DNA from: an uncultured virus (IMG/VR IMGVR_UViG_3300046507_000660)
Taxonomy: Duplodnaviria > Heunggongvirae > Uroviricota > Caudoviricetes
Virus record (IMG/VR): IMGVR_UViG_3300046507_000660
Location: 55,447-75,446 of that record
Reading direction: 5' to 3' (one strand)
Length of the DNA: 20,000 nucleotides
A program made the position numbers and the translations under genes. Position 1 is the stretch's first letter. Every line of letters begins with the position of its first letter. Of this stretch, positions 2,104 through 18,395 are shown piece after piece. The notes beneath the pieces were generated by a model. That model was not told the origin of the DNA. It was given only the letters and a program-made list of their open reading frames with translations, and ran no database searches.

Positions 2104-2133
2104 CGCGACACAAGCCGGCCGGGCGCCCACAGT
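2104..2133 (+). promoter_or_regulatory. Conserved bipartite promoter-like motif, copy 1
   Basis: CGCGAC(2104-2109)ACAAGCC, N18, CACAGT(2128-2133). ATG 2141 follows 7 nt later, suggesting a leaderless transcript. Confidence 0.65.
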
Positions 2134-2140
2134 GCCCGGC

Positions 2141-2413
2141 ATGGCTACGAACCCCACCACCAGGAAGCCCGCCGCCGAGGCGGAGGACAACACCGAGCCG
2201 GTCGCCGAGACCGCCGAGGCCCGCCCGGAGCGCGCCCGCCGCACACCCGACGTCGTCGGCCCGCCCCTTGGCGACGGCGAAAAGCCGGTCACCGTCACCC
2301 TGTCCCACCACCTGCGGATCAACGGCACCGACCATCTGCCGGGCGTCGAGATCCGCGTGTCCCCCGACTATGCCCGCGGCCTGCGCGGTCAGGGCTACGT
2401 CGCCCGCACCTGA
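2141..2413 (+). CDS. Small hypothetical protein (90 aa), possibly virion-associated
   Basis: ATG 2141, no SD. Disordered N-terminus plus compact C-terminus VTLSHHLRINGTDHLPGVEIRVSPDYARGLRGQGYV. TGATG coupling to the next gene. Confidence 0.65.
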   Translation: MATNPTTRKPAAEAEDNTEPVAETAEARPERARRTPDVVGPPLGDGEKPVTVTLSHHLRINGTDHLPGVEIRVSPDYARGLRGQGYVART

Positions 2414-2838
2414 TGACCGAGCCGACCCTCGCCGACGCCGACCCGGTCTCCGTGCTCCTGGCGTGGCTGCAGCAGAGCGACGAGGTCGCCGACGCACTCG
2501 GCGGCCCCAATCGCGTGTCCGGCATCGCCGAGGCACCATGGCCGCACCTGGTCATTGACCACGGCGCCGGCGGAGACCTGCGTGACCTGAACTGGGCCAT
2601 CGCACCGGAGGTGACGCTCGAGGTGCACGGGGACCCGGGCGGCTGGCCGGGGAAGGCCGAACTGCGGAAGATCCTCATGCGCTGCGCCACGGCCGCCAAG
2701 GGCGTCGTCGAGGCGCCGCACACGCCCGGCCAACCCGTCATCAACGGGGTGAAGCCCTCCGGTCTCCTGGTCTGGTCGCCGCTCGTCAACGGCCAACCCA
2801 GGTGGCTGATGAACCTCTCAGTGACCCTGCACCCGTGA
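2413..2838 (+). CDS. Tail terminator/tail completion protein
   Basis: 141 aa, immediately upstream of the major tail gene. Pattern 'VADALGGPNRVSG...PWPHLVI...VTLEVHG' is typical of terminators. Confidence 0.7.
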   Translation: MTEPTLADADPVSVLLAWLQQSDEVADALGGPNRVSGIAEAPWPHLVIDHGAGGDLRDLNWAIAPEVTLEVHGDPGGWPGKAELRKILMRCATAAKGVVEAPHTPGQPVINGVKPSGLLVWSPLVNGQPRWLMNLSVTLHP

Positions 2839-2841
2839 CGA

Positions 2842-2872
2842 CGCGACGTTAACCACTCCCGCTCTCCAAGGT
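2842..2872 (+). promoter_or_regulatory. Conserved bipartite promoter-like motif, copy 2
   Basis: CGCGAC(2842-2847)GTTAACC, N19, CAAGGT(2867-2872). Confidence 0.65.
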
Positions 2873-2905
2873 GTCCGCGCCCTGACACCGGACACCTTGG
2901 AGAGC
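2861..2905 (+). repeat. Perfect 17-bp inverted repeat covering the major tail RBS
   Basis: GCTCTCCAAGGTGTCCG (2861-2877) / CGGACACCTTGGAGAGC (2889-2905). The right arm contains the GGAGAG SD. Confidence 0.9.
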
Positions 2906-2911
2906 CCCGTC

Positions 2912-3505
2912 ATGAGTGGCGAGACGATCAACAACAACGAAATCGTTGTCCCCAGCATCACCCGCGTCTACCTGGGGCCCGTCGGTACGACTGCGCCCGC
3001 CGACGCAACCGTGGCGATGCCCGCCGCTCTGCGGAGCGTCGGCCTCACTACCGAGGACTCGCTCAAGTTCAACTCCGAACCGAACTTCGAGCAGGTCAAG
3101 TCCGCCCAGTCCTCGTACCCGACCCGCACGTTCCAGACCTCCGATGCGGCGACCATCGAGGTCGACCTGCAGCAGTGGTCCGGCGAGAACTTCAAGGCCG
3201 TGTACGGCGGCGGCGACATCGCCGAGATCACGCCCGCCGGCGGCACCGGCACCCCCAAGCACTACAAGTTCACGCCGCCGCGGATCGGCTCCCGGACCGA
3301 GGTGATGGCTGTGGTCGAGGTCATCGACGGCGGCAAGCACTACCGGTACATCATCCCCCGCTGCATGCAGATGGAAGGCGTCGCCTCCGACCTCGCGAAG
3401 ACCAAGGAGGCCGTGCTCCCGTTGCGCCTGGCCGTCCAGGGCGGCGACGACCTGGATGCCTTCTACGTCCTCACCGACGACCCCGCGTTCGGCCCCGCGG
3501 CGTGA
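2912..3505 (+). CDS. Major tail (tube) protein
   Basis: ATG 2912 after GGAGAG, 197 aa. Motifs 'RVYLGPVGTTAP', 'VGLTTEDSLKF' and 'DGGKHYRYIIPR' are typical of actinophage tail tube proteins. Lies upstream of the chaperone and tape measure genes. Confidence 0.88.
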   Translation: MSGETINNNEIVVPSITRVYLGPVGTTAPADATVAMPAALRSVGLTTEDSLKFNSEPNFEQVKSAQSSYPTRTFQTSDAATIEVDLQQWSGENFKAVYGGGDIAEITPAGGTGTPKHYKFTPPRIGSRTEVMAVVEVIDGGKHYRYIIPRCMQMEGVASDLAKTKEAVLPLRLAVQGGDDLDAFYVLTDDPAFGPAA

Positions 3506-3520
3506 CCTCTCGCGGCAGCG

Positions 3521-3551
3521 CGCGACACAAGCCCCACCGGCTTGGCACTGT
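3521..3551 (+). promoter_or_regulatory. Conserved bipartite promoter-like motif, copy 3
   Basis: CGCGAC(3521-3526)ACAAGCC, N19, CACTGT(3546-3551). Confidence 0.65.
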
Positions 3552-3603
3552 CCGCGCGCTGCCGCACCCCGGCAACCCAGCTACTCAAGAAGAGGTCACC
3601 CAC

Positions 3604-4128
3604 ATGTCGTTCGTCATCGACCTGGACGCCGAGCGCCGCGAAGTCCAGTACCCCGACGGCATCCCCGTGAAGTTCGGCGGGGAACAGTTCATCTTCCCGG
3701 CAGAGCTGCCAGCGGAAGCTCTCGACCCGATCCTGTCCGACGAGCTGGACCTGGTCGGCCTCCTGGGCGACGTCCTCGAATCCTCCGACGGCGACGCCGG
3801 AATCAAGGAGATCGTCAACGCCCTCTTCCGGCGCCCGTCCCTGCCGCGGAAGTTCCTCGCCGCGATCCGCGAGACCTACACGATCCTCCTCGGCGACCAG
3901 CACGAGGACTTCCTCCGACAGCGCCCGTACATCGGCGACTACGTCCGCCTGACGACCGGTCTCACCAAGGTCTACGGGGTGGAACTGGGAAAGCTCTTTC
4001 GGTCTGCCGACTCCTCCGAGAACGCTTCGGAGACGTCGAGTCAGACCTTTCCCGATACCACCGAGTCGACGCCCGACGAGTCTGGCTCCGCCCCGGACAG
4101 CCCGAATTCATCGGCCTCCGACGGCTGA
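3604..4128 (+). CDS. Tail assembly chaperone (gpG-like, 174 aa)
   Basis: ATG 3604 after GAAGAGG, between major tail and tape measure genes. Contains slippery G GGA AAG (LGK) and an acidic Ser-rich tail. Confidence 0.85.
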   Translation: MSFVIDLDAERREVQYPDGIPVKFGGEQFIFPAELPAEALDPILSDELDLVGLLGDVLESSDGDAGIKEIVNALFRRPSLPRKFLAAIRETYTILLGDQHEDFLRQRPYIGDYVRLTTGLTKVYGVELGKLFRSADSSENASETSSQTFPDTTESTPDESGSAPDSPNSSASDG

Positions 4129-4433
4129 TCTCCCTCGTCGACGGTCTGCCCGACGACTCCCAGGTCCGCTCTGTCCCCTTCGGAGGCTGGAACCGGTACC
4201 TCGAGCTCTTGGCGCTGATCGTCGAGGAGATCGGGCTCCTTGCCGCAGACAAGCGGCGCGAAGAGCCCACCAGCATCGTTCGCCCGCCGCGCTCCGGCAC
4301 TGCGACGCGCAGCAGCTCCGGCACCACGCCCCAGCCGCCGCAGCCCGCCCCGGAACCGCCGGCGTCCCGCATGACCGGCCACAGACAGATGCTCATGGCG
4401 GCCATGCAGAGAGGAATGGTCCGTAGTGGGTGA
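3604..4433 (+). CDS. Tail assembly chaperone, frameshifted long form (gpGT-like, ~276 aa)
   Basis: -1 frame reads ALSVCRLLRERFGDVESDLSRYHRVD...LRRLISLVDGLPDDS, typical of actinophage gpT. Its stop overlaps the tape measure start. Confidence 0.82.
3987..3993 (+). other. Programmed -1 ribosomal frameshift site GGGAAAG
   Basis: In X XXY YYZ phase (CTG GGA AAG), same heptamer as lambda G/T. The -1 frame is open to 4433. Confidence 0.88.
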
Positions 4434-7400
4434 GGGCCTGCAGGCCGGTCGCCTCGACGTGCCGGTCGTCGCCGACCTTTCGGGGTTCGCGGCAAAGCTG
4501 CGCGCGGAAGTCGAGTCGGCCGCCGAAGGCCTGGCCGCGAAGATCAAGGTCGAGATCGACTCCAAGGGCCTACGGCGACGGCTCAAGGACGTGGTCAAGG
4601 AGGCGTCCAAGGGCGTCACCGCGAAGATCCGCGTAGAGATCGACGAAGACCGGTTCCGTGCCTCCCTGGACGGCATCCGCCGCCGCATCGACGACTCCGG
4701 CCTGAACCTTCCCGTCAGGCCGGACGGCGACGGCGACGGCTCGAACCGCGGCGGTCTACTCGCCGGGCTGCGGAACCTGATCACTGGCGCCCAGGGCGAA
4801 GCCGACCGGAACCCCGTCAACGTTCCGGTCAACATGCGGATGCCGGGGCGCGGCCGCGGCTCCCTGCGCATGCTCGGCATCGGCTCCCTCATCTCCCTGC
4901 TCGAGCCCGCGGTCGCCCTGATCGGCCAGTACGGCGCCGGCCTGACAGCCCTCGTGTCCGCGGCCGCGCCCGCGGTCGGTGTCCTGGGAGCGATACCCGG
5001 GCTGATCGCCGCGGCAGGCACCGCAGCTATCGGCACGAAGGTCGCGTTCTCCGGCTTCGGCGACGCGCTCAAGGAGACGCTGAAGATTCAGCAGCAGCAG
5101 GCCGCCGGGACCAAGGTCACCAAGGCCGAGCAGCAGAAGCTCGACCAGGCCCTCGGCAAGCTGTCGAAGTCGGCGCGGGAGACCGTCACCACGGTCGCGA
5201 GCCTGTCCAGTGCCTGGCGGGACATGAAGAAGTCCGTCCAAGAACGCTTCTTCTCCAAGATCGCCGACGAGGTCAAGCCCCTGTCGGAATCGGTCCTCCC
5301 TCTCTTCAAGAAGACCCTCGGCGACAGCGCCTCTCAGATGGGCAACCTCGCCAAGCGGGGCGCCCAGTTCATGCAGACCGGCGTCTTCCGCAGGGACTTC
5401 AAGACGATCGCGGGCACCAACTCCCGCGTCGTCGGCAACCTGACCGATGGCCTGGCCAACATGGGCCACGCCACCATGGACTTCCTGGTGGCTTCCGGAC
5501 CGTTCGTCGAGCGGGTCGGTCAGGCCGGCGAGAAGTTCACCCAGTGGGTCCGGGCCTCCGTGAAGGCGGGCCGGGAAACCGGCAGCCTCGCCAAGTTCTT
5601 GGACCACGCCGGGGACAAGGCCGCGCAGCTCGGCAGGACCACCGGCAACCTCATCAAGGGACTCGGCGGGGTCGGCAAGGCCGCGATGGACAGCGGTAAC
5701 GCCCTGCTCGACGGCCTCGAGGGCAGCATGCTGCGCTTCACGCGCTGGGCCAACTCCGGCGTGGGCCAGAAGGCCATGCAAAATTTCTTCAGCGACGCGG
5801 CCCCTGCGTTCCACGAGGTCAACCTCCTTTTCGGGGACCTCATGCGCGGGCTCGGCCGGTCCATGAAGGACGGCGGGATCACCGACCTCGTACGGCAGAT
5901 CCGCACGGAACTGATGCCCGCCCTCGGTTCGTTCTTCAACGCCATCGGCCACAGCGTCGGGCCAGCGGTCATCTCCGTGATCTCGAACCTCGCCACGGCG
6001 ATCGGGAACGTCTCGGCGGCGGGAAGCGGGCTCGCCGTACTGCTCGTGACCTTCAACGGGCTGCTGCAGATTTTCAACGGGGTCATGCGCGTGATCCCCG
6101 GGGCGAACACGGCACTTGCTGTGTTCCTGGGCACGATGCTCGCCCTCAAGGTGGTCAGCGGCGTCGCCACGATGCTGCGCGGCTTCGGCACCTCCGTCAC
6201 CGCCGCGGGCACCTCCGTGCGCACGCTCGGCACCACCATGCGGGGCACGATGGGCGCTGGCGTCCTCGGCCCGCAGATCACCATGTGGCAGCGGATGGGG
6301 CTCGCCTACCAGGGCGCCGCCTCGCAGGGTGGCCGCCTCACCGGGACGCTGCGCGGGATCGGCGCGGCCAACCGTGTCGCCTCCCGGGCCCTCGGCGGCA
6401 TCACGTCCGCTCTCGGCGGCCCGCTCGGCATCGCCATCGCTGGCGTCACGATCGGTCTCGGCTTGCTCGCCTCCAAGCAGGAGGCCGCAGCCCGCGCCGC
6501 GGCCGCGCACGAGGAGCGCGTCAACTCCCTCGCGCAGGCCCTGGCGGACTCCAACGGCCAGATCGACGCCAACGTTCGCGCCCAGGCCGCGCAGTACCTC
6601 CAGGAAATCAAGCTCTCCGATGGCAAGGGCAAGCTCGTCGACGTCATGCGGGACGCCGGCGTGAACCTCAAGTCGGTCACGGACGCCTACCTGCAGCAGG
6701 GCGGCTCAATCGACGGGCTGCAGAAGAAGCTGACCGGGCTCGCCGATGCCACCAAGCACTACGTGAACTACGCCGGTGACAAGGCGTCCAAGCTCGAGTA
6801 CACGCCGCAGGGCGAGAAGTACAAGGCCGCGGCCGACGCCCTCGGGGCGATGAGTGGCGAGCTGGACAAGTCACGGAAGAAGCAGAAGGAACTAGACCAG
6901 GCGGTCAACGGCTCGGCTACTACCGGCACGACGTCGTACGACCGTCTGAATTCCGCCGTCCAGGGCTTCACCGACAAGACCAAGAGCGCGGACGAGCGAG
7001 TCGACGCCCTCAAGCGCGCTCTCAACGAGCTGCAGGGCAACACCCAGTCGTTCCACGACGCCGAGACCCAGCTCAACGCCGTGATGCTCCAGATCGACGA
7101 CACGATGAAGGAGAACATCGACCACGCCGACGGCTGGGGCAAGAAGCTCGTCGACAACGACGGGTTGGTCAACACCGCGTCCAAGAACGGGCAGACCCTC
7201 AACTCGCAGCTCACGGACCTGCGAGACGGCATGCTCGGCGTGGCTACCCGGGCGCAGGAAGCCGCGGAGCAGGGCCTCATGCCCATGTCCGAAGCAATGA
7301 GCAAGAGCCAGAAGGCGATGGAGCAGGCCCGCGCGAAGGCCATTCAGCTCGCCACGGACATGGGCATCCCCAAGGAGCAGGCCAAGGCGCTTGCCGATCA

Positions 7401-8469
7401 GATGGGGTTCATCCCGGACACCGTCACCACCCTGATCACGGCCCAGGGCATCCCGGAGGCGACCGCGGAGTTCCTAAGCCTGCGCAGCACCCTGGAGAAG
7501 ATCCCCGCAGGCAAGGGCGTCCAGATCAAGGCGCCCACGTTTGAGGCCCGCACCCAGATCGAAGCCCTCGGCTTCAAGGTGCAGCGCATCCCCGGCAGCA
7601 AGAACATCGTGGTCACGGCCCCGACCAAGGGCGCGCGCATCAACATCGGCGCCCTCGCCGCGGACATCGCCAACGCCCCGGACAAGAAGAAGGTCACCGT
7701 CCAGGCGATCATCAAGCAGGCCGCCGGCGACCTGAAGAACGTCCAACAGAAGGTCGCGGGCCTGCCCAAGGGCAAGTCCATCGAGGTCAAGACACCCACG
7801 AAGACGGCCCAGGCCGCGCTCAAGGACCTCGGTTACAAGATCAAGACCGTCGACGGTTCGCACGGCAAGACCGTCAAGATCACCGCCCCGAACAAGACGC
7901 CCATCCAGCAGGTGCAGGCGATCCAGGGGAAGATCAACGGCCTTACCGGCAAGACCGTCCACGTCACCGTCAAGTACTCGACGCTGGGCAAGCCGTACGT
8001 CTCCCCGAAGGCAGACGGCGGGATCGTCCAGTACGCCAACGGTGGCATCCGCCGCATGGCAGGCCGAGTGAAGGCCTTCGCGAACGGCGCGGAGCAGCAC
8101 ATCGCGCAGATCGCGCAGGCAGGCGAGATGCGCCTGTGGGCGGAGCCCGAGACCGGCGGAGAGGCCTACATCCCGCTGGCTCCCGGCAAGCGCCGCCGCT
8201 CCGAGGCGATCCTCGATCGGGTCGCAGAGATGTTCGGCGGCCGCGTCGTCTACTTCGCCAACGGCGCGATGCGCCAGTACGCACAGGGCGCCGTACGGAC
8301 GCGCGCCTCCACCGTCCGGCAGCGAGCGGCGGCCGCGCAGGCGGCGGGAGCGCTTGTCGGCGGTGACCTCAACCTGAACATCGGTGCGGTCGCATCGACT
8401 GGAACCGCCCTGGAGGACGCCATGTTCGAGCTGCGCCGTATCCGACTCGGAGGGGGAGCCAATGCGTGA
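4426..8469 (+). CDS. Tape measure protein (1347 aa)
   Basis: Long Ala/Gly-rich helical protein with hydrophobic segments, following the chaperones. N-terminal 'AGRLDVPVVADLSGF' and C-terminal 'ADGGI...WAEPETGGEAYIPL' are tape-measure motifs. Confidence 0.95.
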   Translation: MGEGLQAGRLDVPVVADLSGFAAKLRAEVESAAEGLAAKIKVEIDSKGLRRRLKDVVKEASKGVTAKIRVEIDEDRFRASLDGIRRRIDDSGLNLPVRPDGDGDGSNRGGLLAGLRNLITGAQGEADRNPVNVPVNMRMPGRGRGSLRMLGIGSLISLLEPAVALIGQYGAGLTALVSAAAPAVGVLGAIPGLIAAAGTAAIGTKVAFSGFGDALKETLKIQQQQAAGTKVTKAEQQKLDQALGKLSKSARETVTTVASLSSAWRDMKKSVQERFFSKIADEVKPLSESVLPLFKKTLGDSASQMGNLAKRGAQFMQTGVFRRDFKTIAGTNSRVVGNLTDGLANMGHATMDFLVASGPFVERVGQAGEKFTQWVRASVKAGRETGSLAKFLDHAGDKAAQLGRTTGNLIKGLGGVGKAAMDSGNALLDGLEGSMLRFTRWANSGVGQKAMQNFFSDAAPAFHEVNLLFGDLMRGLGRSMKDGGITDLVRQIRTELMPALGSFFNAIGHSVGPAVISVISNLATAIGNVSAAGSGLAVLLVTFNGLLQIFNGVMRVIPGANTALAVFLGTMLALKVVSGVATMLRGFGTSVTAAGTSVRTLGTTMRGTMGAGVLGPQITMWQRMGLAYQGAASQGGRLTGTLRGIGAANRVASRALGGITSALGGPLGIAIAGVTIGLGLLASKQEAAARAAAAHEERVNSLAQALADSNGQIDANVRAQAAQYLQEIKLSDGKGKLVDVMRDAGVNLKSVTDAYLQQGGSIDGLQKKLTGLADATKHYVNYAGDKASKLEYTPQGEKYKAAADALGAMSGELDKSRKKQKELDQAVNGSATTGTTSYDRLNSAVQGFTDKTKSADERVDALKRALNELQGNTQSFHDAETQLNAVMLQIDDTMKENIDHADGWGKKLVDNDGLVNTASKNGQTLNSQLTDLRDGMLGVATRAQEAAEQGLMPMSEAMSKSQKAMEQARAKAIQLATDMGIPKEQAKALADQMGFIPDTVTTLITAQGIPEATAEFLSLRSTLEKIPAGKGVQIKAPTFEARTQIEALGFKVQRIPGSKNIVVTAPTKGARINIGALAADIANAPDKKKVTVQAIIKQAAGDLKNVQQKVAGLPKGKSIEVKTPTKTAQAALKDLGYKIKTVDGSHGKTVKITAPNKTPIQQVQAIQGKINGLTGKTVHVTVKYSTLGKPYVSPKADGGIVQYANGGIRRMAGRVKAFANGAEQHIAQIAQAGEMRLWAEPETGGEAYIPLAPGKRRRSEAILDRVAEMFGGRVVYFANGAMRQYAQGAVRTRASTVRQRAAAAQAAGALVGGDLNLNIGAVASTGTALEDAMFELRRIRLGGGANA

Positions 8470-9505
8470 CGGCGAATGGGTCCTCGGCTACTCCCCTTAT
8501 GACAACTACCCGGGCGCGTCGCTGACGTTCGGCCGCGAGAGGTCCGGCATCTACTGCCTGAGCGAGCCGGACGTCACGTTCGCCGACATGGACCTTTCCG
8601 ACGCGGCTTTGCCCGGCGAGGACGGTATCCGCATGGGCCGCGACTACCAGCGGAACGCCACGGTCACGTTCGAGCTGGGCGTCGACGGCGTAGGGGGACC
8701 GATTGACCGGCACTGGCCCATGCGCCCGTGGACGCGAGGGACCCGGGTCGGTGACTGGACCGACATCGAGGCGGTGCTCGCCGCCTACAACAAGAAGGAC
8801 CAGGGGCCGTACCAGTGGGGACTCGACGGCCTGAACATGCTGCGGCAGGTGTGGCGGGCCGACTCCACCCGTGGGAAGGCCGGCCGCGTCGCCTGGCTCG
8901 TACACAGCTCTGGAGGGCGCACCCGCCAGATGTACGGGCGCCCGAGGAAGTTCGCTGTCTCCCACTCCCGGCTGAGCCGCCAGGGGTACACGCCCGTCGT
9001 CTGCGAGTTCGTCGCCGTCGACGATCGCTTCTACGAGCAGACAGAGAAAGAGGTCGAGCTCTACGACCACCTGTTCCTTGGACTGCCGCCGCGGCCCGGC
9101 CGAGTGTCGGGCGGCGGCTGGCTGTTCCAGTCGAAGAAGACCGCGTCATTCCAGCAGCGCGGCACGCTCAACACGTACCCGTACATCGAGATCCACGGGC
9201 CGTGTAAGAACCCGAAGGTCACGCTGACCCCGGAACTGTGGGCGGTGCAGCTCAACATGACGATCGGCGTCGACGAGCACGTCACCATCGACGCCCGCCC
9301 GTGGGCGCGGACGGTCACTCACTACAAGGGCTCGACGTCGAAGTCGGTGGCGGACAAGCTGACGCGGTCGAGTCCGCGGCTGTCGCAGATGTTCATCCCG
9401 CCCGGGTACTGGACGGCTTCGCTGGCCTACACGAAGTCGACGGTCCGCGCGTTCGAGGGGCCGCGGATCCGGATCGCCTATCGCGACGCGTACTCCTGGT
9501 GGTGA
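8462..9505 (+). CDS. Distal tail protein (Dit)/minor tail protein
   Basis: ATG 8462 overlaps the tape measure end. 'GEDGIRMGRDY', 'YGRPRKF', 'YPYIEIHGPCKNPKV' and terminal 'YRDAY' fit a Dit. Confidence 0.8.
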   Translation: MRDGEWVLGYSPYDNYPGASLTFGRERSGIYCLSEPDVTFADMDLSDAALPGEDGIRMGRDYQRNATVTFELGVDGVGGPIDRHWPMRPWTRGTRVGDWTDIEAVLAAYNKKDQGPYQWGLDGLNMLRQVWRADSTRGKAGRVAWLVHSSGGRTRQMYGRPRKFAVSHSRLSRQGYTPVVCEFVAVDDRFYEQTEKEVELYDHLFLGLPPRPGRVSGGGWLFQSKKTASFQQRGTLNTYPYIEIHGPCKNPKVTLTPELWAVQLNMTIGVDEHVTIDARPWARTVTHYKGSTSKSVADKLTRSSPRLSQMFIPPGYWTASLAYTKSTVRAFEGPRIRIAYRDAYSWW

Positions 9506-9508
9506 GCA

Positions 9509-9539
9509 CGCGACAGTAGGCGCCGCGGCCGCCCACTCT
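9509..9539 (+). promoter_or_regulatory. Conserved bipartite promoter-like motif, copy 4
   Basis: CGCGAC(9509-9514)AGTAGGC, N19, CACTCT(9534-9539). Confidence 0.62.
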
Positions 9540-9569
9540 CTCCTCTCCCTTATGGAGAAGGAGAACGGC

Positions 9570-10538
9570 ATGACGTGGGACGGCATCCCCTGGTTCGTCG
9601 AGGGCACCGCAGCGTCCGAGGAGACGATGCGCCTGATCGTCGAGGCGGCCGTGTCTGGCGGAGAGGGCGTCATCGGCCCCGCTGACCTCCTGGTGACGGC
9701 GCTGGACGCCCCGGCCGGCGCGGTCCAGGTGGCACCGGGGGCCATAGTGGCGAAGCGCCGCGCGGCCGCGGGCGGCGGGAACCAGTCCTACGCGGCACGG
9801 ATGCCCACGCTTGAGCAGGTGGACATCGAGCCGACTGCCGCCGACGGAGGCAGGTCGGATCTGATCATCGCCAGGGTGGAGGACCCCTACGGCGGGGAGA
9901 CTTGGCCGGCGCCCGAAGACCCGACGGTCGGCCCGTACGTCTTCACCCGAGTCATCCCCGACGTGCCGCAAGGCACCACGAGCATCCTCGACATCGACCC
10001 CGACTCCACCGCCATCACCCTGGCCCGGGTCGACGTGCCAGCGGGGACGACCAACATCACCGCTGGCATGGTCACCAACCTGCGGCAAATCGCGCGGCCG
10101 CGGGCGCAGGCCTCGCGTCGGTACCTGCCCGGCGCCTGGTCGACCCCGGACGACGTCGGCCCCATCACCGACGGGTGGGAGATGTTCCCGCTCGGTGCGA
10201 CGTGGACGGAGAAGGTGCCGGAGTGGGCGACGCACGTGGCCGTGCACGTGTCCATCACGGGCCTGCTCCACCCCGACGCGACGGAGGCCCGCGGCCAGGT
10301 ACGGGTGTCCTTCGGCGAGCAGCACGGGGTGGGAATGCCGTACGGGGCCACCCAGGCGGGCCGGCTCGCCGTCCAGGCCGGGCACAAGTTCCTCCTCGAC
10401 CCGGCCGACCGCGGGCAGATGCGGGACATCGACATCGAGGGCATCGGCACCGCGGGCTTCACCGGTGTGCTGCGCGCCGACGCGTACACGGTGCTGTCGC
10501 TCGAGGTGACCTACTCGCAAGAGCCGGTGAGTGCCTGA
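9570..10538 (+). CDS. Minor tail/baseplate protein
   Basis: ATG 9570 after AAGGAG. 'GRSDLIIARVEDP' and 'ITLARVDVPAGTTNITAGMVTNLR' are common in actinophage baseplate proteins. Confidence 0.78.
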   Translation: MTWDGIPWFVEGTAASEETMRLIVEAAVSGGEGVIGPADLLVTALDAPAGAVQVAPGAIVAKRRAAAGGGNQSYAARMPTLEQVDIEPTAADGGRSDLIIARVEDPYGGETWPAPEDPTVGPYVFTRVIPDVPQGTTSILDIDPDSTAITLARVDVPAGTTNITAGMVTNLRQIARPRAQASRRYLPGAWSTPDDVGPITDGWEMFPLGATWTEKVPEWATHVAVHVSITGLLHPDATEARGQVRVSFGEQHGVGMPYGATQAGRLAVQAGHKFLLDPADRGQMRDIDIEGIGTAGFTGVLRADAYTVLSLEVTYSQEPVSA

Positions 10539-11737
10539 TGGCCTGGCGGTACATCGCGATGCGCGCGGTGTCCGGCGACTTCCTCGACTGGGACGTCCCG
10601 TTCGTCGCCGACTCCCCGCCCAAGCGGGAGCTGAACGGGCCCGGCCAGATGACAGGGAAGATCGCACCGGAGTACATGCGGCTGATGGCCAAGCCCGACG
10701 GCCTGCCCGTCCTCGCCGAGTGGTCCACCGCTCTGTTCGCCGAGTTCGAGGGCCGTATCCGGTGGGGCGGACTGATCACGAACATCGCCTTCGAGGGCCA
10801 GGCGATGAAGGTCACGTGTGCTGGCTACACCGCCTACCCCAACGGCATCCCCTACCTCGGTTCCGTGATCCGCTCCGGCGCCAAGATCGCCCAGAAGTGG
10901 GCGTACGACGGGAAAGACAAGAACCACGACGGCTACATCGACGGCACCCACCCCAAGAAGAAGATGCCGAAGAAGCCCAAAGGCAAGGTCAGTACCCGGT
11001 GGGACGCGTACGACATCGTCCGAACCATCTGGGCCCACCTGCAGGACTACAAGATGGGCAAGCTGGGCGTCACCCTCGACAAGCACGACTCCGGTTACAA
11101 GCTCGGCGCCTCAAGCGGCGAGGACCCGTGGGAACTGCTGTGGTGGGACAGCCCCGACTGTGGCTCCACGATCACCGACGTGATGAACCTTGCGAAGGGC
11201 GATTTCCTCGAGCGGCATTACTGGGACGGCTCGAAGGAGAAGATCCTCCATCACATCGACCTGGGCACCAGGCGCCTCGGCAAGGCCCGCAACGACCTGC
11301 GATTTGCCCAGGGCGAGAACATCATCGAGATCGCGACCCCCAACTACCAGGGCGATTTTTTCGCGAACAACGTCTACGTGCTGGGGAAGGGGTCGGGGCA
11401 GAAGACGGCCCGGGTCCGTGTCGTCGTCGACGACAAGCGGCTGCGTCGCGCCCGGATCATCGCCCACAAGAGCACCGCGAACGCGAAGTCGCTGACCGAG
11501 TACGGCAAGAAGGAGCGGGCCAGGCACTCGGAACAGCTCACGATCCCGTCCATCGCGGTCCGCCACCACCCCAACGCCCCGCTCGGCTCGTGGGCGCTCG
11601 GCGACCGCATCCTCGTCCAGGTCGACATCCCGTGGGTGGGCGAACTCGCCATCTGGCACCGCGTCGTGTCCGAGGAGATCGACCCGGCCGCCGGCACCGC
11701 GGTCCTGTCGCTGACCCGCAGCGACTTCTACGGCTGA
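10538..11737 (+). CDS. Tal/baseplate hub-like minor tail protein (399 aa)
   Basis: TGATG overlap. MAWRYIA..., 'RELNGPGQMTGKI', 'IRWGGLI', 'LRFAQGENI' and 'WALGDRILV' fit an actinophage hub protein. Confidence 0.78.
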   Translation: MAWRYIAMRAVSGDFLDWDVPFVADSPPKRELNGPGQMTGKIAPEYMRLMAKPDGLPVLAEWSTALFAEFEGRIRWGGLITNIAFEGQAMKVTCAGYTAYPNGIPYLGSVIRSGAKIAQKWAYDGKDKNHDGYIDGTHPKKKMPKKPKGKVSTRWDAYDIVRTIWAHLQDYKMGKLGVTLDKHDSGYKLGASSGEDPWELLWWDSPDCGSTITDVMNLAKGDFLERHYWDGSKEKILHHIDLGTRRLGKARNDLRFAQGENIIEIATPNYQGDFFANNVYVLGKGSGQKTARVRVVVDDKRLRRARIIAHKSTANAKSLTEYGKKERARHSEQLTIPSIAVRHHPNAPLGSWALGDRILVQVDIPWVGELAIWHRVVSEEIDPAAGTAVLSLTRSDFYG

Positions 11738-11743
11738 CCAGGC

Positions 11744-11774
11744 CGCGACACTAACCCCTTCTCCCCTCCACTCT
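11744..11774 (+). promoter_or_regulatory. Conserved bipartite promoter-like motif, copy 5
   Basis: CGCGAC(11744-11749)ACTAACC, N19, CACTCT(11769-11774). Confidence 0.65.
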
Positions 11775-11827
11775 CCCGCCCTGCCCCGGATATCCCGGCG
11801 GCCGCGGAGAGATGGAGGGGAGGACGG

Positions 11828-14800
11828 GTGTCGTCCTTCAACCTGGACGAGCGGGAGAAGGCCAAGCAGTTCGCGTCCTACTTCAAGCAGCTCGAGGACC
11901 GCCTGGCCGCGCTCGAGCGCTCTAACCAGCTCAACAACGCGAGCATCGAGGGCGGCGCCCTCGACATCTACGACGAGGACGGCGCCCTCAAGGGCTCCGT
12001 CGGCGTGCAGGACGACGGCACGGTGGCCTTGGTCCCCCACCCGGAGAACACCGACCCGCCCCCCACACCGTCCGCGCCGACCGTCGATTCCGCCCTGGCG
12101 GGGCTGGACATCACATGGTCCGGCCAGTGGGCCAACTCCGAGACCGCGCCCAACGACTTCGCCCTGGTCCAGGTCCACGTCGGCACACCCGCCGACTTCA
12201 CCCCGAACGCCGCCACCCAGGTCTCGCAGATCAACGACGTGACCGGCGGCAAGACGACTGTGCACATCGAGGGCTACGACCCGGTGTGGGTGCGCCTGGT
12301 CGCTGTGAACACCGCGGCGCTGGCGGGTGATCCGTCGGACGCGGTGCAGGGGCAGGCGAGGCAGGCCGTCGGCCAGGACCTGATCGACAACATCATCACT
12401 GACGTCAAGATCGCGAACGAGGCGATCACCGAGGCCAAGATCGCCTTGTCGGCTGTGACCAGCGACAAGATTGCGGCCGGCTCGGTGAACGAGCTGCTCC
12501 TGGCCGACGACGCGGTCACCGCGGCGAAGCTCGCGGCCGCTTCCGTGGGGACGGTCGCCCTCGCCGATGGCGCGGTGCTGGCGGCCAAGCTCGCCGACAA
12601 CGCGGTCACGCAAGCCAAGGTGGCGGCGAACGCGGTTACGGAACTCGCCCTCGCGAACTCGGCGGTCACCTCGGCGAAGGTGGCCGTGGGTGCGATCGAC
12701 TCCACGCGGATCGCGGACGCGGCCGTCACGGCGGTGAAGATCGGGCAGAACGCGGTCACCGCGGCGAAGCTGGCCGACGGCGCCGTGGGCGTACTGGCCC
12801 TGGCGGATTCCGCGGTCACCTCGGCGAAGGTGGCCGTGGGTGCGATCGACTCCACGCGGATCGCGGACGCGGCCGTCACGGCAGTGAAGATCGGGCAGAA
12901 CGCGGTCACCGCGGCGAAGCTGGCCGACGGCGCCGTGGGCGTACTGGCCCTGGCGGATTCCGCGGTCACCTCGGCCAAGGTCGCTGTCAACGCGATCGAC
13001 TCCACGAAGATCACGGACGCTGCTGTGACAGCGGCAAAGATCGGCGCGGCCGCGGTCACCACAGGCAAACTCGCCGCCCAGGCCGTCACGCTCGCCAACC
13101 TGTCCGGGGCGCTCGCCGACGTCGCCTCCCAGCGGTGGGTCGACACGATGGGTGACCCGTCCACCTGGACGGTGGCCGCCCTCAGTACCGGCGGCGCCTT
13201 CGACTTCCTCACCGGCATCACCGACGCCCAGACCGGACAGACCGTCGGCCAGGCCACCGGCTTCGCCCGCCTGCGCGGCAACACCCTGATCCCGTACGAC
13301 CCCGACGTCCTGTATCGCATCTCCGCCCGAGTCCGGATGCCGCAGGCCAGCACCTCCGACGCGGTCTATGTCGGCGTCCTCGGCATCGGCGCGGACGGCG
13401 TGACGTTGGTCAACCGCGACGGCTCCAACTCCGTGAACAGCCACTACTACCCGGCTGCGTCCGGGAAGGCCGTCGCGAACTCGGACGGCTGGGTCACGGT
13501 CGTCGGGTTCATGAAGGGCCGGGCCGCCTCTGGTGTCTCGGGCAGTGCCGGCCCGAACAACGACCCACGCTCCGCGGGCCTGGTGAACGCGGGCGTGCGG
13601 TTCATCAGCCCGTACATCTGGCTCAACTACAACCAGCAGTCCAGCGGGTCCTCGAAGATGCAGATGGACTACGTCGCGATCGAGGCCCTGAAAACCGGCG
13701 TGGTCGACACGATCAACCTGTCGTCCGGCGCGGTCACGGCCCCGGCCATCGCAACGGACGCTGTGATCGCCGGAAAGATCGCGGCCGACGCCATCACCGC
13801 GCGGGAACTTGCGGCGAACTCGGTCACGGCCGCGGAGCTCTCCGCCGGGTCGGTCACGGCGGCCGCCATCGCGGCGGGAACCATCACGGCCGGGCAGCTC
13901 GCCGCGAACTCCGTCACGGCGACGCAGATAGCCGCGGGCAGCGTGCAGACGGCGGCCCTGGCCGCCGACGCCGTAGCGGCCGGAAAGATCGCGGCCGACG
14001 CCATCACCGCGCGAGAGTTGGCCGCGAACTCGGTGACGGCCGCGGAGCTCTCCGCCGGGTCGGTCACGGCGGCCGCCATCGCGGCGGGAACCATCACGGC
14101 CGGGCAACTGGCCGCGAACTCCGTCACGGCGACGCAGATAGCCGCGGGGGCGGTGCAGGCTGGAGCCCTGGCCGCGGACGCCGTGGCGGCCGGCAAGGTG
14201 GCCGCGGACGCGATCACCGCGCGGGAGCTCGCCGCGGGGTCGGTCACGGCCTCCGAGATATCCGCCGGCTCCGTCACCGCCAACGCCATTGCCGCCGGAT
14301 CGGTCACCACGGACAAGCTGACCGTCGTAGCGGGCTCCAACGTCCTCAACGATCCCAGTTTCGAGGGCGCCTACGCCGCCTCGGTGGCCGCAAAGTTCTC
14401 CTCGTACGTCGCCCAGGACCTCACGTTCGGCAACGGCTCGGCGGCCAGCCTGAAGTTCACGACGGACGGCACCGCAGCCTGGCGCGCGGCCGAGCTCGCA
14501 CTCCTGACGATCCTCCCCGGGGACCAGCTCCACATCGGCGTCGACTACTACGCCTCGACGAACTGGGTCGGCGCTGGTGGCGAGATCAACATTCAGATCC
14601 GGTGGGAGTCCGAGGGCGGCACCATCCTGTCGTACAGCAAGACCGACAGCCGTACGACCGCGCCCACCCTCGGCGCGTGGACGCGACTGCAGGGCACCTA
14701 CACCGCTCCCGCCACCGCTGTACGCGCCCGCATCCGTATCGAGACCGGCCTGGTCACGGCCGGCACCGTGTCGTTCGACAACGCTGTATGCCGCCCGATC

Positions 14801-17488
14801 GTCCCCGGGGTGCAGATCGCCGACGGTGCGATCACCACGCCCAAGATGGTCGCCGGGTCCATCCAGGGCGACCGGATCGCGGTCAACACCCTGAACGCCG
14901 ACCGCATCGTGTCCGGCTCGATCACCACGAGCCAGCTCAACGTCACCACCGCGGCGAGCGTGCTGCAGAAGTTCTACGACGTCGGCGCGGACGCAGCGAA
15001 GTGGCGCACCAGCGGCTCGAGCACGACCACCACGACCACGCCCACGAACCTGACGTCGGTCCAGGTTGCCGACGCCCAGGCCGGCGGATCGGTCATGCGA
15101 GCGGTCGCCCAGGTCTCCGCGGCTTGGCGGCCGGACATGCTCATCCCGTTCGACCCGAACGTCCTCTATCGCATCTCCGCGGTCGTCCGGCAGACCGTCG
15201 CGGGCAGTGACACCGCGCAGCAGCGGTTCTACATGGGCGTGGCCGGCGTGGCAGCGGACGGCACCACCCTGGTCAACACCACCGGCGCCGCCTCCGCAGC
15301 CACGCAGCACTACGTCGCCGCCTCCTCCCAGAACCTCACCGCGGGCGGCGGATGGCAGCGCTTCACCGGCTACATCAAGGGCTACGCGGCGACTGGCGCC
15401 AACGGCACACAGGGCACTGCCCCCTCGCCCACCGCGCCGGGAGTGCTGCACGCGAACGCCCGCTACATCTCGCCCCTGTTCTACGTGAACTACAGCGGCG
15501 GAACCGGCACCGCCGAGATCAGCTCCATCACGGTCGAAGTCATCGAGACCGGCGCGGTGCAGACCGTCAACATCGCCGATGGCGCCATCACGGCGAACAA
15601 GATCCTGGCCAACACCATCACGGCGGACAAGATCGTCGGCCTGTCCATCACGGGCGACAAGATCGCGGCGAACGCCATCACGACGGACAAGCTAGCGGCG
15701 CTGTCTGTCACCGCGGTGCAGCTCGCCGCGAACTCGGTCACAGCCACGGCCATTCAGGCGGGATCCATCGACGCCACCCACATCAAGGCCGGAGCGATCA
15801 CCGCCGACCGGCTGTCCCTGGGTACCGACGGCAACCTCATCGCCGACCCCAGCTTCGAGGGGGCGATGTCCGACGCTCGGGTCGTCGGGACCACCTACTG
15901 GTCGATCGTCACCCCCGGCAACAACACCGCGCGAGCCCTGCAGGTCAACGCCGCCAACGGCACGGTTATCACCCGCTCCATGACCCTGGCCACGGTGCCG
16001 GGGATGCCCGGTCAAAAGCTGTGGCTGTCCCTCGACTACTTCGCCTCGACCGACTGGAACGGGCTCCGTATCAGCGTGTACGGGCAGTGGCTGGACGCCG
16101 TCGGCAACGTCCTCGACTACAGCACCATCACCACGGGCGACAACCTGGCAGTCAAGGGCGCGTGGACCACCATCAGCGGAGTGCCCGACACGGTGGCCCC
16201 TGCCGGTGCGACTCAGCTCCGCATTGCGTGCTCCACCGTCAACTCCAGCGTGGGCACGGTCCAGTACGACAACGCGTCCGCCCGGATCGTCCTCGCCTCC
16301 GGGTTCGCCGGGGCCCGCTCCGAGATCAGCCCCCGCGGTCTGCAGCTCTTCGACGACAACGGCGACGAGGCCGTCTCCCTGTTGACCGGCCAACCCAACT
16401 ACCTGACCCTCAGCGCCGACGGACTGCCCGTCGCGACGATCGACCAGAACGGTGGGGCCTACTTCCAGAGCCTGGCCGTCGCCGACACCCTGACCGTGGG
16501 CGGCTCCGACTGGACTACTTTCCTCAACCAGTCGCCCCGTGGGATCCAAGCAATCAACTTCCAGACCAGCACTCGCACCGCGTCCGCCACAGAAATGGGG
16601 TTCGTGGAGCTGGTGGCCGACATCGACGCCACCCGGATGTACCGGATCGTGTTCGCGGCCCGCGCCAACCCCTCTGTGACTGGCGGCGAGCTGCAGCTAC
16701 GCCTCCGCGACGGCGGCACCGCCGCGCCAACGATCACGAGCACCCAGCGGTACGTCTCCGTCCACCACATGGCCCTCGGCAACTCCTTCACCGCACGCAT
16801 GGAGTACAACGTCGCGGGCAAGTCGCTCGGCGCCGGAACGCACCGATTCCTGCTGACCTTCACCAACGCGCTCGGCCCCAGCGGACAGACGTGCACTCTG
16901 TCCGGGGCGAGCGACAACCCCGGCTATCTGTATGTCGAGGACACCGGCCCGTACGTCCCCGCGACCGGTGGCTACAACGACGGTGGCGGCACGGTCGCAC
17001 AGCCGCCCACGAAGTACACCAAGACCTATAGCGCCACCTGGTCCGGCTCGTACGCGAACCGCGGCTCGTACAACAGCTATTACGGAAACTCGTGCTACCA
17101 GGGCTACTACTCGTCGACGAACGGCACGCAGGCCAGCCTCATCGGCTTTTCCTCGGCACTCGGGACCGACCTGTCAGGCGCGACGATCGTCAAAGCCGAG
17201 GTGTACCTGTACTTCGATCACTGGTACGCCAACGCCGGCGGAAAGGCCGTCATCAAGGCCCACAGCTTCACCTCCCGACCGTCGACGTTCTCGAGTGATC
17301 CCGAGTCACAGACGATCTCCTGGGCCCGCAACGAAGGCAAATGGGTCGACATCACGGCCGTCTTCGACAGCACCAAGTGGCGCGGCATCGCGCTCGACCC
17401 GAACAGCACCTCGTCGACGTACTACGGCCGCGCCCGCGGCTATGGCCAGACCAACCCCCCGCAGCTCCGCGTCACCTACACCAAGTGA
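11828..17488 (+). CDS. Large tail fibre/receptor-binding protein (1886 aa) with 10-aa 'VTAAKIAAGA' shaft repeats and duplicated carbohydrate-binding-like domains
   Basis: GTG after GGAGG/GGGAGG. FN3-like N-terminal part, four blocks of 10-residue repeats, two 'DPSFEGA...FDNA/YDNA' CBM-like domains, two 'LIP(Y/F)DP.VLYRISA' domains and an aromatic-rich C-terminus. Confidence 0.88.
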   Translation: MSSFNLDEREKAKQFASYFKQLEDRLAALERSNQLNNASIEGGALDIYDEDGALKGSVGVQDDGTVALVPHPENTDPPPTPSAPTVDSALAGLDITWSGQWANSETAPNDFALVQVHVGTPADFTPNAATQVSQINDVTGGKTTVHIEGYDPVWVRLVAVNTAALAGDPSDAVQGQARQAVGQDLIDNIITDVKIANEAITEAKIALSAVTSDKIAAGSVNELLLADDAVTAAKLAAASVGTVALADGAVLAAKLADNAVTQAKVAANAVTELALANSAVTSAKVAVGAIDSTRIADAAVTAVKIGQNAVTAAKLADGAVGVLALADSAVTSAKVAVGAIDSTRIADAAVTAVKIGQNAVTAAKLADGAVGVLALADSAVTSAKVAVNAIDSTKITDAAVTAAKIGAAAVTTGKLAAQAVTLANLSGALADVASQRWVDTMGDPSTWTVAALSTGGAFDFLTGITDAQTGQTVGQATGFARLRGNTLIPYDPDVLYRISARVRMPQASTSDAVYVGVLGIGADGVTLVNRDGSNSVNSHYYPAASGKAVANSDGWVTVVGFMKGRAASGVSGSAGPNNDPRSAGLVNAGVRFISPYIWLNYNQQSSGSSKMQMDYVAIEALKTGVVDTINLSSGAVTAPAIATDAVIAGKIAADAITARELAANSVTAAELSAGSVTAAAIAAGTITAGQLAANSVTATQIAAGSVQTAALAADAVAAGKIAADAITARELAANSVTAAELSAGSVTAAAIAAGTITAGQLAANSVTATQIAAGAVQAGALAADAVAAGKVAADAITARELAAGSVTASEISAGSVTANAIAAGSVTTDKLTVVAGSNVLNDPSFEGAYAASVAAKFSSYVAQDLTFGNGSAASLKFTTDGTAAWRAAELALLTILPGDQLHIGVDYYASTNWVGAGGEINIQIRWESEGGTILSYSKTDSRTTAPTLGAWTRLQGTYTAPATAVRARIRIETGLVTAGTVSFDNAVCRPIVPGVQIADGAITTPKMVAGSIQGDRIAVNTLNADRIVSGSITTSQLNVTTAASVLQKFYDVGADAAKWRTSGSSTTTTTTPTNLTSVQVADAQAGGSVMRAVAQVSAAWRPDMLIPFDPNVLYRISAVVRQTVAGSDTAQQRFYMGVAGVAADGTTLVNTTGAASAATQHYVAASSQNLTAGGGWQRFTGYIKGYAATGANGTQGTAPSPTAPGVLHANARYISPLFYVNYSGGTGTAEISSITVEVIETGAVQTVNIADGAITANKILANTITADKIVGLSITGDKIAANAITTDKLAALSVTAVQLAANSVTATAIQAGSIDATHIKAGAITADRLSLGTDGNLIADPSFEGAMSDARVVGTTYWSIVTPGNNTARALQVNAANGTVITRSMTLATVPGMPGQKLWLSLDYFASTDWNGLRISVYGQWLDAVGNVLDYSTITTGDNLAVKGAWTTISGVPDTVAPAGATQLRIACSTVNSSVGTVQYDNASARIVLASGFAGARSEISPRGLQLFDDNGDEAVSLLTGQPNYLTLSADGLPVATIDQNGGAYFQSLAVADTLTVGGSDWTTFLNQSPRGIQAINFQTSTRTASATEMGFVELVADIDATRMYRIVFAARANPSVTGGELQLRLRDGGTAAPTITSTQRYVSVHHMALGNSFTARMEYNVAGKSLGAGTHRFLLTFTNALGPSGQTCTLSGASDNPGYLYVEDTGPYVPATGGYNDGGGTVAQPPTKYTKTYSATWSGSYANRGSYNSYYGNSCYQGYYSSTNGTQASLIGFSSALGTDLSGATIVKAEVYLYFDHWYANAGGKAVIKAHSFTSRPSTFSSDPESQTISWARNEGKWVDITAVFDSTKWRGIALDPNSTSSTYYGRARGYGQTNPPQLRVTYTK
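12662..13020 (+). repeat. 150-bp (50-aa) tandem repeat inside tail fibre
   Basis: 12662-12811 and 12812-12961 differ at one position that I could find (GCGGTG/GCAGTG). A degenerate third copy begins at 12962. Confidence 0.9.
13771..14270 (+). repeat. 210-bp (70-aa) tandem repeat inside tail fibre
   Basis: CGGAAAGATCGCGGCCGACGCCATCACCGC at 13771 and 13981. A diverged third copy starts at 14191. Confidence 0.88.
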
Positions 17489-17500
17489 GGAAGCCGACCT

Positions 17501-17884
17501 ATGCCCGCGCTACCGATGCCCCTGAACACGATGTGCGCTCTTGCCTGCGAGAAGTCTTTACTGCCACGCGTGCGCATGGCCATCGCGATCATCGCGCAGG
17601 AGGTTTTCGCCGAGTCCAAGGACACCCCCGGGTATCCGCTGCGCTGGAACTTGGCGAAGACGGTCCTGAGCCCGACCGAGGCACAAGCCGCGTCGATGAT
17701 GGTCGGCCTGGTCGTCTACCCGGACTTGCTCGCCGCGGCCGCGGCCGCCGGAACGACTGATCCCGTGGCCATGGCCGCAGCGATTACCGACGAGCAGCTC
17801 CTGGCCGCGATCCGCGCGGGATGGAACGCGGTCTCCGGCGTCAGCCAGGCCTCGATCGCCGAGACCGTGCAGGCGACGACGTAA
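17501..17884 (+). CDS. Small tail-fibre-associated hypothetical protein (127 aa)
   Basis: RBS GAGGAAG, directly after the fibre gene. Helical 'RVRMAIAIIAQEV...ITDEQLLAAIRAGWN'. Confidence 0.7.
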   Translation: MPALPMPLNTMCALACEKSLLPRVRMAIAIIAQEVFAESKDTPGYPLRWNLAKTVLSPTEAQAASMMVGLVVYPDLLAAAAAAGTTDPVAMAAAITDEQLLAAIRAGWNAVSGVSQASIAETVQATT

Positions 17885-17905
17885 AGCCTTCCGGTGTTGC
17901 AGCGT
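17875..17905 (+). promoter_or_regulatory. Conserved bipartite promoter-like motif, copy 6 (degenerate)
   Basis: GACGAC(17875-17880)GTAAAGC, N19, CAGCGT(17900-17905). Confidence 0.5.
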
Positions 17906-17911
17906 TCGGGC

Positions 17912-17953
17912 TGCGGGGAGCCGCGGACCTTTCGGGGTCCCGGCTCCCGCGCA
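17912..17953 (+). other. Strong GC-rich stem-loop with UUCG loop (5'-UTR hairpin or terminator)
   Basis: TGCG-GGGAGCCG-c-GGACCT-[TTCG]-GGGTCC-CGGCTCCC-g-CGCA. No U-tract follows. Confidence 0.7.
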
Positions 17954-17987
17954 CCCCAATCTGACGACCGATACCGAGGAGGCGCTC

Positions 17988-18395
17988 ATGGAGTGGCTCA
18001 CCTCTCTGGCGCCTGTCCTCGCCCCCCTGTCCGGCATGGTTGGCGTGCTGGGCGGAGCCTGGATGGTGTACCGCCAGACGAGACACAAGACCGACACGGA
18101 CGCCCGCACCGCGGAAGCCAACACGGCAGTCACCGCTGTGACGACCGTGACGGAGGGCTTCACCAAACTGCTGGAGCAGCAGCGCGAGACCAACGCGAAG
18201 ACCCTCGAGCGACTCACCACGGTCGAGGCCCGCGTCGAGCGCCTCGAGGAGGAACAACGGCAGTGGCGACGGTGGAAGGCCGCCGCGGTGGAGTACATCC
18301 ACCAGCTCCGCGCCCTGGTCGGCCGGCTCCGCGAGAGTCCCGCTCCGGCCCCGCCGCGCGAGCTCGCCGAGGACCTGGGCGACAACGCGACGTAA
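17988..18395 (+). CDS. Membrane-anchored coiled-coil protein, lysis-cassette type
   Basis: RBS GAGGAGG. One N-terminal TM segment followed by a heptad-rich region (LERLTTVEARVERLEEEQRQW). Confidence 0.75.
   Translation: MEWLTSLAPVLAPLSGMVGVLGGAWMVYRQTRHKTDTDARTAEANTAVTAVTTVTEGFTKLLEQQRETNAKTLERLTTVEARVERLEEEQRQWRRWKAAAVEYIHQLRALVGRLRESPAPAPPRELAEDLGDNAT

Follow-up and report, generated by a model that had tools for sequence, protein, structure and literature searches.

Candidate promoter-embedded ribosome-site locks at virion-gene junctions of a Streptomyces phage

Several genes of bacteriophage T4 (e, soc, 49, and I-TevI), together with mobE of Aeh1, have their Shine-Dalgarno (SD) sequence or AUG held in a helix of longer transcripts initiated upstream, according to PMC3014915. 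In this T4-type arrangement, the DNA for the 5' strand of the helix contains or adjoins a late promoter, and the late transcripts, which are without that strand, are well translated (PMC3014915). Here we describe a similar arrangement in a stretch of 20,000 nucleotides (the window), which is the last 20 kb, bases 55447–75446, of a 75,446-bp IMG/VR phage record. Copies of a promoter-like motif lie in the gaps between virion genes of the window, and at several of these gaps the promoter DNA is complementary to the SD of the next gene. A preliminary description of the window, made from its letters alone, had named e, soc, and I-TevI as precedents, and this agrees with PMC3014915. Computation suggests the same logic here as in T4: an SD helix in the long form of the RNA, and a late promoter embedded in it. 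In contrast to T4, the host and lineage are those of a high-GC Streptomyces phage of siphovirus type, and the promoter is bipartite and sigma-70-family-like, not TATAAATA. Three or four junctions in one block of virion genes carry the device, in alternation with leaderless starts, and the upstream and internal promoters are apparently of the same class.

The closest precedent among actinophages is the SAS and ESAS elements of Cluster K mycobacteriophages. According to PMC3203893, these are repeated elements in one orientation, found where translation begins in some of the genes. Half of them are directly preceded by inverted repeats, and no function is known for them. SAS is a fixed sequence of 13 bp located at the start site, the arms of ESAS share one 17-bp consensus, and the elements are located in the non-structural half of the genome (PMC3203893). 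The elements in the window are also repeated and in one orientation. Compared with that description, however, the shared element here is promoter-like, lies 23–75 nt from SD-led starts, and is found among virion genes. The arms here vary from site to site, each complementing its own SD; in this they do not conform to SAS or ESAS. A second comparison is with the leaderless mRNAs of actinobacteria. As in those, a start codon without SD is located at the predicted +1, at four of 11 motif sites, whereas behind the one promoter family of this phage, leaderless starts alternate with SD-locked ones. Within the phage collection, Streptomyces phage Gilgamesh (129 kb) is the only named relative of the window, with 79% identity over 45% of the window, and the gene order of the window matches its annotation. 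Searches through the full texts of open-access papers and preprints turned up nothing on locks of this kind in actinophages, and no paper joining Gilgamesh, Streptomyces, and phage.

The motif is GCGAC(A/G)NNA(A/G)-N13/14-CANNNT, and it lies in gaps right after stop codons (P1 to P7 in Table 1). The preliminary description considered it to be shared by the junctions, and the counts bear this out. The 75-kb record contains 10 matches on the plus strand and none on the minus strand, against 0.23 expected on both strands together (200 dinucleotide shuffles, maximum 3). Allowing A as the first base adds the site at 17876 and gives 11 sites in all. The pattern was written after the sites had been seen, and the complete genome of Gilgamesh is the independent check. 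It contains 20 strict matches, all on the plus strand, located before virion genes, lysin A, and some genes of the right end. Motif matches are seen at the homologous junctions in 25 related loci, with one minus-strand match in total. The junctions homologous to P6 show (G/A)NGAC(G/A)NAAG ... CAGCGT in 29 loci.

The second box, CANNNT, is constant for A at position 2 and T at position 6, which are the key −10 positions of sigma-70-family promoters. As in promoters of the sigma-70 family (ECF type), two conserved boxes are found at fixed spacing, in one orientation, and upstream of genes. A scan of the window with a generic sigma-70 consensus found no promoter. An ECF-type sigma gene (PF04542, PF08281, and PF07638) is present in all four of the fuller relatives, one of which is a 125.8-kb record with 100% identity to the window in the proteins tested. 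The record that contains the window ends before the region that encodes the ECF sigma factor in these relatives. We infer that this sigma factor is the reader of the motif. The motif appears to behave like a promoter, and the gaps of the virion-gene block would carry copies of one phage late promoter. At two junctions, TAA within the first box (GACGTAA) is the stop codon of the upstream gene (17882–17884 and 18393–18395); the latter, inside P7, terminates the gene at 17988–18395. GAGACGTAAGC is common to many relatives at the former junction.

The four start codons without SD (genome positions 31280, 34835, and 46710, and window position 2141) are ATG or GTG. Each is exactly the eighth base after the second box and is in frame with a long open reading frame (ORF). 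They can be read as the starts of leaderless mRNAs. At the junction of window position 2141, the spacing between box and ATG is 7 nt in 11 of 13 related loci and 8 nt in the other two. In Gilgamesh, the predicted +1 coincides with the annotated starts 52245 and 56138 and is one base before 66004. The start at 56138 is the ATG of the site 1 counterpart, where the spacing is 7 nt. As the start codon is the eighth base in the leaderless sites, +1 is placed there at the other motif sites. The ORF that begins at genome position 34835, outside the window, extends to 46333 and encodes about 3,830 aa from a predicted leaderless start behind a promoter copy; its counterpart is gene 48 of Gilgamesh, for which the annotated start is 12 nt upstream of the predicted +1.

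The preliminary description reported complementarity to the SD or start codon at six motif sites, with stems that differ in sequence and share their geometry. All six are stems of minimum-free-energy folds close to the positions first given, with z from −3.25 to −7.5 against shuffles (sites 1 to 6 in Table 1). The arm sequences vary from site to site. The 5' arm lies upstream of the predicted start at every site, with an overrun of about 2 nt at site 4 (9539–9548). At sites 2, 3, 5, and 6, the predicted start, placed from the motif and the leaderless spacing only, is between the two arms. Site 1 is different from the others in that it is without SD and the pairing covers the start codon only. 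Conservation of its stem was considered and rejected, as the spacer-to-ATG stem is seen in only two of 11 distinct sequences (the window type and L019). Site 1 is better read as a leaderless start than as a lock.

It had also been proposed that long transcripts fold and hide the ribosome-binding site, while transcripts from the internal promoter leave it open. The free energy needed to unpair positions −16 to +2 of each start (opening cost, in kcal/mol throughout) was computed for a long RNA, from 40 nt upstream of the motif, and a short RNA, from the predicted start. For control, the upstream part was shuffled 200 times. In these computations, the proposal holds at sites 2, 4, and 5 with a large difference and at site 3 with a smaller one in a long-range form; it is not supported at sites 1 and 6. 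At site 2, the 5' arm is composed of spacer, −10 box, and discriminator, and the 3' arm holds GGAGAG, the SD for ATG 2912 of the major tail protein gene. The opening cost is 26.7 in the long form and 6.3 in the short form. At site 4, CUCUCCUCUC pairs with GGAG.AGGAGA, the SD for ATG 9570 of a minor tail protein gene (16.5 versus 6.9). At site 5, the 5' arm is pyrimidine-rich, and the 3' arm holds both the SD GGAGGGGAGGA and GTG 11828 of the gene for the 1886-aa tail fibre (26.0 versus 8.7). The long value is reached by none of the 200 shuffles at any of these three sites. At site 3, the 5' arm covers TGA 3503–3505, the stop codon of the major tail gene, and the tail assembly chaperone gene (ATG 3604) has its SD in the 3' arm. 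The costs are 12.7 and 4.7, and one of the 200 shuffles reaches the long value. In the long form, the SD or start codon is paired at sites 2, 3, 4, and 5, while at site 6 it is paired in both forms. The short leaders of sites 2 to 5 are not above shuffles in structure (z of +1.75, −0.6, −0.09, and +0.62, respectively).

The 139 annotated Gilgamesh genes without the motif were used as the natural background. Their long-minus-short difference is 1.1 on average (standard deviation 2.8), and three genes reach 8. In the same fixed contexts, sites 2 and 5 (20.4 and 21.1) are above all 139 genes, and site 3 (7.3) is reached by five of them. Site 4 is not scorable against this background, because the fixed 35-nt short form still includes its 5' arm. 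When promoters and ribosome sites were swapped among 20 pairs, no other combination surpassed the own pairing of sites 2 and 5 in either direction, and that of site 6 was near the best in both genomes.

Conservation among relatives, which the preliminary description had named as a check together with covariation, is found at sites 2, 3, 4, and 5 and not at sites 1 and 6; compensatory changes accompany it at sites 2 and 5. At site 2, the spacer tract CUCUCC pairs with the SD in all 17 folded junctions (the window, Gilgamesh, and 15 IMG/VR loci). The long-minus-short difference is at least 2.7 in 16 of these 17 SD-led junctions, window included: it is 15.7–20.7 in 10 junctions, 10.2 in one, 2.7–4.0 in five, and −0.4 in the remaining one. 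Covariation was evaluated on a covariance-model alignment of 15 distinct sequences. Minus-strand matches and three unrelated ones had been dropped, and L017 is without a homologous junction. In this alignment, 85.5% of cells pair, compared with 78.3 ± 1.4% in column shuffles (0/500 reach the observed value). Double changes are seen in eight of 17 pairs, against 4.97 pairs in shuffles (11/500). Seven cells are G-U. When the partners are slid, only 38–51% of cells pair. RNAalifold on a plain MAFFT alignment had found four pairs only, with the arms misaligned by indels, and was replaced by the covariance-model alignment.

At site 5, the difference is 8.2–20 in all 10 folded SD-led rows (window included; eight distinct sequences). 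Here, 94.9% of cells pair, four pairs are doubly changed (13/500 shuffles), and 15 cells are G-U. These G-U cells fit only plus-strand RNA. The junction before the fibre gene of Gilgamesh has a leaderless start and no lock. At site 4, the difference is 2.8–10.5 in all nine SD-led junctions folded. Gilgamesh has an unrelated pair of arms at this site, CCGCUG/CAGCGG, at the same place and with the same geometry. At site 3, the difference is 3.2–10.8 in 12 of 13 junctions computed, a count that leaves out L014 and L018, on which the patterns failed; the exception is Gilgamesh, with −0.7. The region inside the outer helix of site 3 (3512–3565, just after the major tail gene) is a 16-bp inverted repeat around the whole promoter, with the first box in its 5' arm and the second box and the predicted start in its 3' arm. 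In L020, both arms of this inner repeat have a C-to-T change, resulting in two G-U pairs, which suggests an RNA role for the repeat.

These data also bear on the idea that the inverted repeats are DNA operators for a regulator overlapping the promoter. The repeats do overlap the −10 region, and at site 3 the whole promoter is enclosed. Nevertheless, arms that vary from site to site provide no common operator, and the G-U pairs at sites 2, 3 (in L020), and 5 fit a single RNA strand and not the symmetry of duplex DNA. Operators are thus highly improbable. The hairpins of sites 2, 4, and 5 are real and conserved structures at the level of RNA. Promoter DNA supplies their 5' strand and the SD their 3' strand, and transcription is predicted to begin in the loop or at its edge.

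Hairpins in intercistronic gaps could instead be elements for processing, stability, or termination, such as RNase III-type duplexes, protective 3' hairpins, or U-less terminators, and the SD could be included simply because the gaps are short. In favour of this, the gaps span only 60–100 nt, and long, near-perfect stems are formed (17 bp in site 2, about 22 bp in site 5). Other strong hairpins in gaps (3512–3565, 17913–17952, and one just upstream of the capsid promoter) avoid the SD. On the other hand, the 3' arm is the SD itself in 17/17, 9/9, and 10/10 homologous SD-led junctions of sites 2, 4, and 5, the predicted start is in the loop at all three, and the short leaders are open to an unusual degree. 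The stems are not followed by a U-tract, their 3' flanks are rich in C and G, and no canonical intrinsic terminator is found on the plus strand. We regard this explanation as unlikely.

Promoter-embedded ribosome-site locks are, by a narrow judgement, probably the best explanation of the junctions. At sites 2, 4, and 5, spacer, −10 box, and discriminator would double as the 5' arm of a helix that has the next gene's SD as its 3' arm. The locked genes would be those that start at 2912 (major tail protein), 9570 (a minor tail protein), and 11828 (tail fibre). RNA coming from upstream would have both arms, fold, and hide the ribosome-binding site. RNA from the local promoter would begin in the loop without the 5' arm, leaving the site open. 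Good translation is probably confined to messages begun at the local promoter, as far as the folding model indicates. The gene at 3604 may have a longer-range version, in which ribosomes ending the major tail gene can also open the helix at the stop codon. In the leaderless copies (2141 and three more in the genome), the start codon would be at +1, so that efficient translation would likewise be tied to the promoter. The net effect could be that the first gene of each unit is translated according to its own promoter and not according to read-through RNA. Read-through RNA should be common, because a scan of the plus strand of the window found no terminator-like site and the distance between promoters goes down to 740 nt. 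As the promoters look alike, insulation of gene translation from upstream transcription is favoured over a strict gate between early and late expression.

The helices might also couple translation in polycistronic RNA, with upstream ribosomes opening the SD and fixing the ratios of proteins, and with the overlap with the promoter being incidental. Site 3 fits this: its 5' arm (3502–3510) lies on the stop codon, an arrangement that recurs in 12 of 13 junctions computed. Since the arm covers the stop codon, terminating ribosomes should open the helix, which would mean coupling and not silencing; silencing is at any rate no more likely there than coupling to the translation of the major tail gene. 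At sites 2, 4, and 5, by contrast, the first paired base is 22, 33, and 17 nt past the upstream stop codon. From the footprint of ribosomes, a distance of 17–33 nt is taken to be out of reach for a terminating ribosome. Coupling as the general explanation is quite unlikely, even more so than processing or termination.

A number of facts weigh against the locks. Terminating ribosomes on the 5' arm of site 3 should unlock read-through RNA there. All promoters look like one class, and most read-through RNA would also be late, which weakens a purely temporal role such as the AND-gate put forward in the preliminary description. The start site, the eighth base after the second box, is a prediction calibrated only on the leaderless sites. 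In distant relatives, the difference at site 2 falls to between −0.4 and 4 kcal/mol, and the covariance-model alignment of this site was fitted to the model structure, which favours structure. In the swap test, the own pairing of site 4 is not specific, and that of 18387 ranks last.

Moreover, the lock is not a constant part of the promoter, although the preliminary description had presented it as part of a repeated cassette. The copies at S0 (genome position 54487), site 6, and 18387 are without a convincing one. At S0, the opening cost is 9.4 in the long form and 8.6 in the short form, and 136 of 200 shuffles reach the long value. At 18387, the costs are 12.8 and 7.9, and one of 200 shuffles reaches the long value. 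The stem of site 6 joins the spacer, GCCUUCCGGUG, to ACCGAGGAGGC, the SD region before ATG 17988 of a gene for a membrane or holin-like protein, and the long and short forms show no difference (13.8 versus 14.3; 43/200 shuffles reach the long value). Site 6 was rejected as a conserved lock: the difference averages −1.3 over 27 distinct junctions, counting the window, and is below 5 kcal/mol in all of them. Its complementarity beats shuffles in three of 28. The capsid junction (genome position 49968, outside the window) was rejected as well. It has an anti-SD tract, CCTCTCCC, in the spacer opposite the SD AGGGAGAG, with equal costs in the long and short forms, and 21 of 100 shuffles reach the long value. 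In Gilgamesh, only two of 12 SD-led promoter genes show a difference of at least 8 kcal/mol, compared with three of the 139 other genes.

A broader proposal can be put forward tentatively, and we hold it to be somewhat less probable than not. Streptomyces phages of about 110–130 kb in this clade might use one sigma-dependent family of late promoters as a gate for transcript identity. The first gene of a unit would be translatable only from RNA begun at its own promoter, through either a start codon at +1 or an anti-SD strand within promoter DNA, and the two solutions would have been exchanged at the junction before the fibre gene. If the locks are true, the trick of T4 gene e is a recurrent design, more than a peculiarity of a handful of T-even genes. 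As such, it would have originated independently in a high-GC actinophage, in several virion genes at once, and be interchangeable with leaderless initiation. The motif offers a testable promoter consensus and a rule for start sites in a phage group without a transcription map. It also suggests a sigma factor and a promoter that may belong together, and could supply Streptomyces engineering with compact parts for insulation. For annotators, several starts in these phages may be leaderless.

Table 1. Motif copies, hairpins, and genes of the window (window coordinates; motif copies are given as first box, spacer length, and second box).
Feature	Position	Strand	Details
P1	2105..2133	+	GCGACACAAG, 13 nt, CACAGT; leaderless mRNA predicted from ATG 2141
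P2	2843..2872	+	GCGACGTTAA, 14 nt, CAAGGT; predicted start ~2880; kept at the homologous junction in relatives
P3	3522..3551	+	GCGACACAAG, 14 nt, CACTGT; predicted start ~3559
P4	9510..9539	+	GCGACAGTAG, 14 nt, CACTCT; predicted start ~9547
P5	11745..11774	+	GCGACACTAA, 14 nt, CACTCT; predicted start ~11782
P6, variant	17876..17905	+	ACGACGTAAA, 14 nt, CAGCGT; variant first base (ACGACG); predicted start ~17913
P7	18387..18416	+	GCGACGTAAG, 14 nt, CACAGT
Site 1, stem	2113-2126/2132-2146	+	−27.3 kcal/mol, z −4.2; promoter spacer pairs with discriminator region and ATG 2141
Site 2, candidate lock	2861-2877/2888-2905	+	−34.9 kcal/mol, z −6.3, 17 bp
Site 3	3502-3510/3591-3599	+	outer helix around inner hairpin 3512-3565; −57.1 kcal/mol, z −7.5
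Site 4, candidate lock	9539-9548/9554-9564	+	−17.4 kcal/mol, z −3.25; 1/200 shuffles fold as well
Site 5, candidate lock	11755-11779/11804-11828	+	−54.6 kcal/mol, z −6.0, ~22 bp
Site 6	17886-17902 with SD region to 17983	+	z −5.1; encloses conserved hairpin 17913-17952
Major tail protein gene	2912..3505	+	phrog_117, E 1.8e-21
Minor tail protein gene upstream of site 5	10538..11737	+	46% identity to Gilgamesh gp70, E 9e-127
Virion genes in the window		+	minor capsid protein, major tail protein, tail assembly chaperones, tape measure protein, minor tail proteins
Further genes in the window		+	1886-aa fibre protein; holin-like membrane protein

The window has a G+C content of about 70%, and its plus strand holds every real gene. 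Non-structural genes are located upstream on the same strand. CheckV estimates the 75,446-bp record to be 58% complete. Of the 24 listed sequencing runs that contain the stretch, none is recorded as RNA. In the clade (the Gilgamesh record and related IMG/VR records), two tyrosine integrases, ParA/ParB-like genes, and the ECF sigma factor gene, the product of which is gp92 in Gilgamesh, are found. The related records are variously classed as provirus, direct-terminal-repeat, or linear. The ORF at 10531–11754 was rejected as a gene; it is a spurious frame, long and without homology, and the true gene is in another frame at 10538–11737. The start of this gene overlaps the upstream stop codon as TGATG. 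At 3604–4433, two overlapping frames (to 4128 and to 4433) precede the tape measure gene. They match the joined annotation of the tail assembly chaperones in Gilgamesh, i.e., a programmed frameshift.

A search of Rfam gave only a sub-threshold miRNA model on the minus strand (26.7 bits against a gathering score of 64). The hairpin at 17913–17952 (GCGGGGAGCCGCGG...CCGGCUCCCGCGC), enclosed by site 6, is strongly conserved and begins at the predicted +1 before the holin-like gene. Across 24 sequences it has 17 pairs, seven of them with compensatory changes, and no match in Rfam. Its role could be to stabilise the 5' end, to terminate transcription after the fibre module without a U-tract, or to bind a protein or RNA polymerase. 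The region 17975–18020 may be a separate control on the timing of lysis.

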